A stretch of 63,482 bases of DNA, counting the filler, from Folioceros fuciformis (taxonomy: Eukaryota), in the NCBI GenBank assembly GCA_049999805.1. It is 5 parts of 5 records of this genome, joined end to end, with 100 filler letters (N's around TTAATTAATTAA, not from the genome) between each part and the next. Parts side by side here need not be neighbours in the genome. Positions count along the whole stretch, not along the records: positions 8,801 to 34,087 come from JBNGIO010001384.1; 4 more parts are not named here. One strand, written 5' to 3'. Under the pieces are notes generated by a model. It worked only from the letters and a program-made list of their open reading frames with translations. It was not told where the DNA came from and made no database searches. The first letter of the stretch is position 1. Every line of letters begins with the position of its first letter. The translations under genes and the position numbers were made by a program. This document shows positions 17,212-20,200 of this stretch, one piece after another.

Positions 17212-20200
17212 ATGGCAGTCGCGCCAGCAGGTGGCCTCGTCACCATGTCAGCCACTGCGCCTGCACCCTGCTGCTCGCCCTCCGCCTCCTCGCCCTCCTC
17301 CTCCACCTCCTACTCCTCCACCAGAGTGGGGCGCTCTGCCTTCTGCGGCACTACCGTCTCCGGCGGTTTTTTCAGCGCTGCAATGGGGGGCTCCCGCCTC
17401 TGTGCCGGCTCCGCTCAGCCCAGGAGACCGGAGAAGGCTTACAAGGGTGTCAGAGTCACTGCTGTCGTGGCGGATTTGGTGGCCAAGGAGACCGTGGTAA
17501 GCCCTCAGCTGACGCGCCTCATCCCGCTTTGCTTGTTTTAAGATAAAAAAATTTTGTCCCTCTCCCTCTCAACGAGGCAATCTCGTCAGTCTTCTGTCGC
17601 TAGTCGTGTGGAACAAGTGAATGAATGCCAACGACGATCAGGTAGTTACCAGTGATGAGGGATTGTAGTGGTGACTCAGAATATGCACAAACTAGCGCAA
17701 TGGTTTCTTGCTGGCAGTATGGATTTTGGTGGTTAATTCCATCAATGCTTGCGGTTGCCGCTGCCTGTTTCCACCCAGTGCTTGAAGTGTTATATAGAAA
17801 GGTATGGCCGTGTTGCAAGGACTTGATTGGCTGTCAGCTTTGATGTTCCCAAGATTGAATGGCAGTGAAGCTTACCACTTCATGTTACGCTATGTTTGAT
17901 AATAGTGTGTGTTGACAGACAATTGGAGCCTGAAGTTTTGAGTCCGTGAGCAATATGGCTCGAAGCCTTGTGTGACCTGTAATCTGTGTCTGCATTGCAG
18001 GTGCAAACTCATATCATGCACATAGTAGACCCATGGGACTAGGTGTCAAGCTGCTTTCTTGAGTTCTGCACTAACCTGGACCCTGCTTTTGTTTGCTTTT
18101 TCAAGGGACTGTGTTGATAGAACGGCCATTTACTTAAAACAACCGTGATGGGAAAGTGTGTTCATACTCTCGTGTGTAATCATCTAGTCTCTTCTTCTGC
18201 TCAGACCTGCTTGCACCCCAGTGTAACTGGTGTACCTGTTTTCTATGCCCATGTTTTCATGTTCTAGCCACACGGCATTTTGGATGGCAGCATGTTTCTT
18301 CCGCTCACTGGGGTTTCTTGTTTCCCACCCCCCCCCTCCTTCATCTGTCTACCTTTCCCGCCCTAGAGACACGGATTATCGCAGTTTGCAGTTGTCGATT
18401 CCATCACCTGTTTTGCGATGCTCTTTACTCACAAGAATGCCTGGTGCCTTCCTCAGGCCACTTCCGTCAATCAGTCTCGGGTGGACCCCAGGACAGTGGT
18501 GTCTGTCATTTTGGGAGGTGGAGCGGGAACCAGACTTTTCCCGCTTACCAAGAGGCGAGCAAAACCTGCTGTAAGCTCCTAGAAGCTCTATGCCTGATGC
18601 ACAGTGTTCGCTTGATGTCTTCATATGGACTTTTCTCTGCAACTGGTCAGTAGGTTTGCGGCTGCGTTATTTGAAGTGCGAAGCCAGATAGTGCAGCCTG
18701 AAGACTTAAGCTTAAATGTAGCATTGAGGAGGGTATTGCCTTTCACAGTAGGCAGTGAACTCACTCTGATACCCATGTGTGCGGCAGGTACCAATCGGTG
18801 GGAACTACAGGCTCATTGATGTTCCCATGAGCAATTGTATCAACAGCGGGATCAACAAAGTGTTCATTCTGACACAGTTTAATTCGGCCTCGCTTAACCG
18901 GCACCTTGCTCGCACCTACAACTTCGGTAACGGTGTTAACTTCGGGGACGGGTTTGTGGAGGTGAGCTGTTACTGGCACTCTTTCCCGTTTTATGGTTGG
19001 TTTAGATAGGTAATCGTGGGCCTTAGGTGTCCCACACCGCCTCCCTTTAGCTTGCAACACTCTAGTAGTGTTTTGTCCCTGCCCCTCCAACACCGCTACT
19101 GTGATTACGTGTAAATGACAAGCTTGTCGTTTAGCAGGTCTTGGCAGCCACACAGACACCAGGTGAAACAGGGATGAATTGGTTTCAGGGGACAGCTGAT
19201 GCTGTGCGGCAATTTCTGTGGGTATTTGAGGTGTGTTAATCGTAAAAATTCGACTGAATTCAGTTTTGTCATGTGTCTGTTCTTGCTTCAAGCAGGTCTT
19301 GGCGGCCACCCAGACACCTGGGGAAGGTGGCATGGAATGGTTTCAGGGGACTGCTGATGCTGTGCGGCAGTACTTGTGGTTGTTTGAGGTGCGTTTGGGT
19401 GTGTGTTAGGAATAGGTGGGTGGGTCGGCGGGCGGACATGTGGGGACTGACTGGGATGGTGGGATTTGACTCTCCTATAGCGCCAACGCTGAGACACTCC
19501 AGACATAAATGATCACATCACTGTTTCGAGCATTGATGTTGAACTTTCATTTTTCAGGACGCAAAGAACAAGCAGATTGAAAACGTGTTGATTCTCTCTG
19601 GAGATCATCTGTACCGCATGGACTACATGGATTTTGTGCAGGTCTCTTATAAACCTGTTCTTTGTCATGGTTGTTCTAGTGTTTGTTTCTTATTGAATTT
19701 TTTTTTTTTATGGGTTAGAAGCTGAGGCGTGTGGATGATGTAGTTTTGTTCTCCAAATTTACGATGCTCAGAACAATATGGAAATGAATGTGCAGAAACA
19801 TAAAGACACTGGTGCAGATATCACCATCTCTTGCGTCCCCATGGACGACAGGTATGCAGCGACGAACTCCATGTTGGTTTTGCCTACATTGTGCCTTGTG
19901 GTTTACCTTGTACATTTTAGTAAAGGGATATTTTGTGGTCATTCGGTGGCAGTCGGGCCTCTGACTTCGGCCTGATGAAGATTGACGACAAGGGGCAAAT
20001 ATTGTCGTTCAGTGAGAAACCGAAGGGAGCTGATCTAAGAGCTATGGTACGGACTGATTATTGTATACTCAATGTTTGTGGCCATGTGCTGCCTCGTCCA
20101 GGAACTGATGGGGTATATCCGTGTGCCCTGCCAGCAAGTCGATACGACCGTCCTAGGTCTATCTGCAGAGGATGCCAAGAAAAAACCTTACATTGCTTCT

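Follow-up and report, generated by a model that had tools for sequence, protein, structure and literature searches.

A well-preserved tandem twin of the activation-loop exon in an AGPase large-subunit gene of Folioceros fuciformis

We examined a 63,482-nt stretch of DNA from Folioceros fuciformis (assembly GCA_049999805.1; hereafter the window) and focused on a gene in the part derived from JBNGIO010001384.1, in which one exon is present as two tandem copies, here termed 4a and 4b (Table 1). The protein model of this gene was 69-80% identical to the 25 matches listed in a blastp search against 120 proteins. Most of these matches were named glucose-1-phosphate adenylyltransferase, many as the large subunit, and exon 3 matched the Pfam nucleotidyl-transferase family PF00483. 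Judged by sequence similarity, the gene is that of the AGPase large subunit (APL). Its introns measure, in order, 960, 217, 334, 169, 154, 101, 88, 122, 91, 89, 82, 84, 91 and 86 nt. Seven intron joints between 18570 and 20368 were backed by spliced contigs and a loose contig end fitted the exon 1-2 joint; exons beyond 20500 were assigned from homology and GT/AG. Exon 1 gave no match as a protein query, the database being one without any protein of a close relative. The exon sizes 174/93/84/56/94 parallel those of the lotus large-subunit gene NnAGPL1, 174/90/84/56/94 (PMC5432948). Because of this match, the duplicated unit corresponds to the canonical exon 4.

Table 1. The APL gene and the surroundings of its twin exons, in positions of the window.
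Feature	Position	Strand	Description
APL gene, coding part	17212-21508	+	15 exons (4a not counted), 542 residues; spliced contigs and homology
Exon 3	18788-18961	+	174 nt, phase 0; contig joints; PF00483, E 1.3e-9
Intron stretch, exon 3 to 4a	18962-19137	+	176 nt; removed together with 4a and the spacer
Exon 4a	19138-19230	+	intact 93-nt twin with a-type (common APL type) residues; skipped in every spliced contig
Spacer between the twins	19231-19295	+	65 nt; putative 4a-4b intron; holds the pyrimidine-rich tract of the 4b acceptor
Exon 4b	19296-19388	+	93 nt; used in all spliced contigs; b-type residues G11, E14, Y26, L29
Intron, 4b to exon 5	19389-19557	+	169 nt; first half G-rich; joint 19386 to 19556 (cut +2)
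Exon 5	19558-19641	+	84 nt; contig joints and gene model

Each twin is directly preceded by AG and directly followed by GT, and is assigned to phase 0 because the gene model gives it. The first-pass annotation of this DNA had described two tandem 93-nt phase-0 exons with AG/GT pairs, separated by 65 nt; its coordinates and translations (two 31-residue peptides) all matched ours, as did a recount of the differences between the copies. These amount to 17 nt, without an indel or stop, and alter 8 codons synonymously and 4 by replacement (position 11, T in 4a and G in 4b; 14, N and E; 26, F and Y; 29, V and L). Within the four replaced codons, 9 bases differ. The twins form the sole direct-repeat family in 18500-20000 (19133-19237 against 19291-19395, 105 nt, 83% identity), and a tblastn search of the whole window with four APL proteins located the exon-4 segment at 4a and 4b only. 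In their anatomy the twins correspond to mutually exclusive exons, since they are homologous neighbours that agree in length and phase and have an AG and a GT of their own.

We considered the possibility that the duplication is an artefact of assembly or collapse. Sampled words were found at fractions of 1.00 and 0.95 in the DNA runs X1 and X2, which come from one sample of the same organism, possibly the source of this DNA. In addition, a DNA contig from another species (X4 record 3) covers 18384-19660 unbroken, through both copies, and an unspliced contig from an RNA-like run spans the two as well. Moreover, the 17 differences that separate the copies have a coding pattern. The independent X4 contig, being from a different species and including 4a as well as 4b, shows that the pair is no assembly echo, as the first-pass annotation had suggested, and we regard the likelihood of an artefact as negligible.

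When compared with Arabidopsis APL1 (PDB 9xuk_B, residues 127-157), 4a scored 47.5 bits and 4b 46.9 bits, whereas both twins reached only 31-34 bits against small-subunit chains, with a 2-residue gap. The exon-4 region is of the large-subunit type, in which the loop is two residues longer than in small subunits. Exon 4 encodes the loop beta3-alpha3, which contains the activation Trp, and helix alpha3. The Trp is position 15 of the exon. Replaced positions 11 and 14 lie in the loop, the latter adjoining the Trp, and positions 26 and 29 fall, by counting along the exon, in the following helix. In the Arabidopsis enzyme, the loop beta3-alpha3 comprises A176-G188 of APS1, and its Trp, APS1 W185, packs by stacking against APL1 W186, the corresponding Trp in the adjacent large subunit; the APL1 loop is disordered until 3-phosphoglycerate (3-PGA) binds, and a double Trp-to-Ala mutant shows a 19.4-fold increase in A0.5 for 3-PGA (PMC13041757). 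The same role of the loop Trp has been described in the potato enzyme (StuS W116, StuL W128) and for W113 in E. coli (PMC3691274). These two reports and the PDB match agree with the earlier proposal that the exon bears the Trp activation loop. It is this very loop, through which activation by 3-PGA has been shown to act, that is present in duplicate here. The third residue of exon 5 is a Lys, located 19 residues past the Trp, as is Arg205 relative to Trp186 in Arabidopsis APL1 when counted rather than aligned; Arg205 contacts 3-PGA (PMC13041757).

The residues that distinguish the twins were then compared across plants. A total of 197 proteins were fetched, the merged small-subunit models P0001 and P0002 were excluded, and rows without an alignable segment were dropped. 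We counted 158 segments of a first type (a-type; F26, mostly ..GMNWF.. or ..GK[KR]WF..) and 16 of a second (b-type; Y26-L27, mostly with G11 and E/D14). All named b-type rows were moss or liverwort APLs (Marchantia, Riccia, Calypogeia, Sphagnum, Ceratodon and Physcomitrium), and a few rows were unnamed. Exon 4b is identical at 30 of 31 positions to the Marchantia and Sphagnum segments. The states of 4a occur in the 158 a-type segments at frequencies of 11% (T), 30% (N), 99% (F) and 45% (V), and in 0 of the 16 b-type segments. Its only residue outside the usual a-type repertoire is L27, the b-type state, found in 1% of the 158. At the nucleotide level, 4a matches exon 4 of L005, an a-type transcript from a distant plant, at 84%, about as closely as it matches 4b (82%), and 4b is 85% identical to the b-type exon of a Sphagnum-like transcript (97% to P0055). 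The first-pass annotation had taken QYLWLFE as the ending typical of small subunits and QF.W.FE as that of large subunits. The former does occur in small subunits and the latter in most large subunits, but large subunits of bryophytes normally have QYLWLFE too, as it is present in 16/16 b-type segments. Exon 4b therefore represents the type common to bryophyte APLs and not a feature borrowed from the small subunit.

Every fetched protein that shows the segment carries a single exon-4 type, with the exception of P0001 and P0002. These models, of 617 and 853 residues, contain the small-subunit exon-4 segment twice, and are most likely merged tandem genes rather than cases of exon duplication. 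Intron-less APL-like genes on aquatic metagenome contigs (L010-L012, L024, L025, L028 and L034), with 58-66% identity to a Sphagnum APL, show the b-type states GGKEWF...QY in the region of the loop exon. The organisms may be green algae. The b-type states may be old and, if the organisms are indeed green algae, the bryophyte b-type may be the older state. As for the position of the gene itself, a quick tree with exon-4 columns removed (38 hand-picked rows) grouped it with b genes of Sphagnum and Marchantia (SH-aLRT of 87 and 85, not starred). In a careful tree, built from 36 hand-picked rows, it fell into a polytomy at the base and the b genes of mosses were separate from those of liverworts; a single b-type clade was not rejected in the approximately unbiased test (p 0.186). 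Placement of the gene in a b-type clade was discarded, as the grouping of the quick tree was lost in the polytomy of the careful one.

Concerning transcripts, four runs were aligned on 18300-20500: X3 from the same organism, X5 from species B, X8 from species D, and X4, which is DNA of another species. X3, X5 and X8 were marked as RNA by guess, no run being on record as such, and we treated them as RNA-derived because their contigs join exons at GT..AG. They are assembled contigs of unknown tissue, from which rare isoforms can drop out; they can establish the presence of a form but not its absence. The donor of exon 3 is the site that chooses between the acceptors of 4a and 4b. In X3, X5 and X8 (record 8) this donor was joined to 4b (18959 to 19294, cut +2, GT..AG) and 4b was joined to exon 5. 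In X3 both joints lie in a 5383-nt contig with 0 mismatches. A single 334-nt intron, consisting of the stretch before 4a, 4a itself and the spacer, is thus removed in all transcripts seen, and in these three species 4b is used and 4a is skipped.

Coverage of 4a came only from three sources. One is an unspliced contig from X5 (record 6; 18934-19323), whose depth was 9.7 as against 173-248 for the spliced contigs. The second consists of contigs with loose ends at 19177-19231 in the RNA-like runs X3 and X5, which are small-subunit transcripts. The third is X8 record 9, a transcript that derives from another APL gene: it is 84% identical over exons 2-3, its exon 5 starts differently, and its exon 4 aligned to 4a (79/90 nt) and not to 4b. 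Relative D thus expresses a separate APL paralog, presumed to be a-type only because its exon 4 aligned to 4a. A 4a-4b joint (19230 to 19296) was found in none of the four runs aligned, and the sole contig with both exons was the unspliced X5 record 6. As the first-pass annotation had expected, 4a and 4b were never seen together in a spliced contig. The junction counts that the first-pass annotation had proposed as a check gave, on assembled contigs, the exon 3-4b and 4b-exon 5 joints without a 4a-4b joint, but neither exon 3-4a nor 4a-exon 5.

The first-pass annotation had proposed that one gene makes two large-subunit isoforms by splicing, in place of tissue-specific paralogs. In its full form, both exons would be used regularly as a mutually exclusive pair, and two abundant isoforms with different allosteric tuning would take over the task of the paralogs. 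The anatomy is that of a textbook pair, the loop concerned is the one in which replacing Trp by Ala increases A0.5 for 3-PGA 19.4-fold, and no a-type paralog contig was aligned for species A or B, a gap in contigs that proves nothing. On the other hand, only the 4b form was assembled in 3/3 RNA-like runs, all joining exon 3, 4b and exon 5, and none used 4a. The idea that splicing replaces paralogs is weakened further by relative D, in which the separate a-type-like paralog is expressed at similar depth (69 against 60), with no splicing needed. We consider regular use of both exons rather improbable.

We next turn to the age of the pair. By the NG86 method, 4a and 4b differ with dN 0.091 and dS 0.86, a ratio of 0.11. 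There were 10.8 differences at 21.2 synonymous sites as against 6.2 at 71.8 non-synonymous sites, and neutrality was rejected (Fisher p 3e-5), in line with the purifying selection suggested in the first-pass annotation. A mean omega of 0.5, which corresponds to one twin being neutral since the split, was rejected as well (P=0.019). The introns flanking 4a and 4b have nothing in common beyond the splice consensus. Because of this, and of the 9 base changes in the replaced codons, the duplication is old; introns diverge by about 9% between species, and the split of the twins is some ten times that. A recent tandem duplication is ruled out by the dS of 0.86, the 9 base changes in four replaced codons and the unlike flanks. 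Codon identity was also considered as a sign of recent exchange and was set aside: the twins share 16/24 synonymous codons, yet 4a shares 18/25 with the distant a-type transcript. The pair is a real, old and well-preserved tandem duplicate of the activation-loop exon of the AGPase large subunit.

A second species keeps the twin region (X4 record 3, X5 record 6). Because it shares the region, about 3-4 hits per lineage would be expected in a neutral 4a, on the basis of local intron divergence. In simulations, the exon remained fully a-type-allowed in 3% of cases after 3 random substitutions and in 1% after 4. A neutral 4a would not be expected to stay so clean, and 4a looks selected.

The splice sites of 4a also appear usable. 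Both its acceptor and its donor lie within the range of the 14 constitutive sites of the gene, the pyrimidine fraction being 0.49 as against 0.38-0.65. The acceptor of 4b has a richer pyrimidine tract than that of 4a (0.62 vs 0.49), and 4b as the default exon therefore fits. The spacer of 65 nt is shorter than 14/14 introns of the gene (82-960 nt), and introns of flowering plants need about 70 nt. Steric exclusion by the spacer could account for the choice of only one twin, and is the only classical mechanism remaining. Incompatibility between U2 and U12 sites was rejected as both splice sites are U2-type GT-AG, and nonsense-mediated decay cannot enforce exclusion because 93 nt keeps the frame with both exons included or both skipped. 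The first-pass annotation had named a palindrome in the short intron, together with C-rich and G-rich intron tracts, as candidate mechanisms. These lacked statistical support: the 12-nt palindrome in the spacer gave no significant fold (z -0.33), and the tracts at 19031-19045 and 19430-19444 were only 73% complementary. The fold of 18950-19570 as a whole had a z of 0.13, with 9/20 shuffles folding as well. A further palindrome at 19112-19133, whose 11-nt arms include one G-U pair, stops 3 nt short of the acceptor AG of 4a and could mask this acceptor. As a hairpin it was no better than shuffles (z -1.19, 19/200).

A further possibility is that 4a is an untranslated decoy, a splicing-control element whose sites engage the spliceosome and tune removal of intron 3. 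The usable sites of an exon that is nevertheless skipped, and the low-depth unspliced contigs across 4a in X5, would suit such a role. However, a decoy needs splice sites only, and not a preserved frame, type-specific residues or a dN/dS of 0.11, and a structured RNA element found no support in the folds. We regard this explanation as very improbable.

Taking these results together, we favour a reading in which 4b serves by default, while 4a is a twin that has been maintained and is used seldom or in particular conditions only, to which we assign a probability of about 50%. The donor of exon 3 would be joined to the 4b acceptor, and 4a would be removed with the intron. Inclusion of both exons would be hindered, the 65-nt spacer being too short for splicing as an intron. 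From its intact frame, usable splice sites and residues of the common APL type, 4a has most likely been kept by selection, as a minor or condition-specific substitute for 4b. A more specific form of this reading, which we put forward tentatively and at somewhat less than an even chance, is that 4a replaces 4b in some tissue or condition outside those sampled, so that the loop and helix alpha3 would switch between types that other plants keep in separate genes. The swap might then alter tuning by 3-PGA and inorganic phosphate (Pi).

Several observations weigh against a functional 4a. In none of the three RNA-like runs did an assembled contig of this gene contain a joint that enters or leaves 4a. 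In X5 a 4a-spliced path was not assembled, though the unspliced contig with a depth of 9.7 was, and 4a is probably used there at a level of less than a few percent. As for selection, the differences of the second species were read base by base only up to 18925, that is, 5' of 4a. Over 18962-19295, 20-27 differences were observed, while 26.5 would be expected with 4a constrained and 31.2 with 4a neutral, a count that favours constraint only slightly. The selection signal could also have been earned in a donor gene before transfer. Finally, intron 3 of Marchantia polymorpha (read-through gene model) is 156 nt long and bears no resemblance to exon 4. At this length it is too short for a 93-nt exon with two introns, which speaks against a very ancient pair at this site. 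Because Marchantia polymorpha lacks room for a twin, b-type APL genes do not have one in general.

A rival reading takes 4a as an unused relic or pseudo-exon, either a fairly recent copy from an a-type paralog or a twin recently silenced, with only the 4b protein being made. The skipping of 4a in all spliced contigs of three species and the missing twin in Marchantia agree with this view, a possible type of donor exists in the expressed paralog of relative D (X8 record 9), and the between-species difference count is compatible with neutrality (P(X<=27)=0.26). Against it, 4a has no stop or frameshift and all of its residues save L27 belong to the a-type repertoire. The region predates the split from the second species, and so clean an exon survives 3-4 hits in 1-3% of simulations. 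The exon of the paralog differs from 4a at 11/90 nt, which exceeds the ortholog-level exon divergence of 32/588 (P=0.0097), and any transfer was therefore not recent. Moreover, an in-phase site just upstream of the homologous exon, with working splice sites, would be expected from in-place tandem duplication but not from random insertion. We consider a relic less likely, and retain the reading of 4a as a maintained, seldom-used twin of 4b. A bolder version, in which the two exons already existed side by side before the APL gene types separated and this lineage kept the unresolved two-exon gene, seems to us improbable.

Intron 3 was also inspected in other APL genes. P0009 of Marchantia polymorpha (AXG93_4080s1120, 586 residues) has, relative to P0008, a 52-residue insert exactly between exons 3 and 4, which looks like intron 3 read through in frame and is probably an annotation artefact. 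In the genomic frames P0012, P0036 and P0120, exons 3 and 4 are contiguous, and in the moss P0120 exon 5 follows as well; because of these cases, intron 3 has been lost in some APL genes. A degenerate pattern of two 11-residue motifs 110-140 nt apart gave 0 matches in metagenome contigs. All 80 loci retrieved with a Sphagnum APL as query were uninterrupted, being transcripts or intron-less genes, and no bryophyte intron was therefore among them.

Some further features of the window were noted. The 5383-nt contig of X3 (record 1) has 974 nt upstream of exon 2 and continues for about 3 kb past the stop, which is longer than the mRNA of this gene needs, and may be a merger of neighbouring transcripts. 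On the same strand (+), 3' of the APL gene at about 22440-24700, open frames contain EF-hand-like DGDGRITG and P-loop GQYSTGKTT stretches, and resemble those of a putative EH-domain/dynamin-like ATPase gene. At 8701-8800, 34088-34187, 56520-56619 and 61938-62037, two 44-nt runs of N are split by 12 bases (352 N in total), and the identical layout at four places suggests masking or scaffold joins rather than biology.

If 4a is used, the gene would provide a natural experiment on the allosteric tuning of starch synthesis through splicing, and a clean case in which alternative splicing and gene duplication are interchangeable routes. If 4a is never used, it would be an unusually well-preserved silent exon, whose preservation needs another explanation. 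We found no report of exon-4 duplication or mutually exclusive splicing in AGPase in the literature searched.

In animals, pairs of exons that exchange a single structural element are frequent, but in plants they have rarely been documented. Kondrashov and Koonin reportedly traced mutually exclusive exons to tandem exon duplication in 2001. In alpha-tropomyosin, exons 2 and 3 exclude each other because a 5' splice site is too close to the branch point; the APL twins resemble this pair in their very short spacer of 65 nt and in their U2-type GT-AG sites, the spacer being short by the measure of the gene's own introns. An origin of mutually exclusive exons from tandem exon duplication is also described in PMC6071210. 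Like such pairs, the APL twins are adjacent homologous exons of the same length and phase, with their own splice sites, that encode one element in two versions. Unlike them, only one APL twin has been seen in mRNA, and a competing RNA structure was unsupported (z 0.13). Among plants, FLM/MAF1 of Arabidopsis also has an exon pair of which one is included, with a 'cryptic' exon limited to close relatives (PMC3266260). The FLM exons encode 19 and 15 residues, and both isoforms have transcript and translatome support, whereas the APL pair is an exact-length homologous duplicate with one form seen. With respect to AGPase itself, variation of the large subunit is the usual means of tuning the enzyme in plants (PMC2529307), and the APL twins match two APL sequence types. 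In flowering plants this variation resides in separate genes, while here two versions of one exon lie in one gene. If 4a takes the place of 4b somewhere, the twins would be a splice-level counterpart of such a paralog pair, at the loop whose Trp stacks on that of the small subunit.

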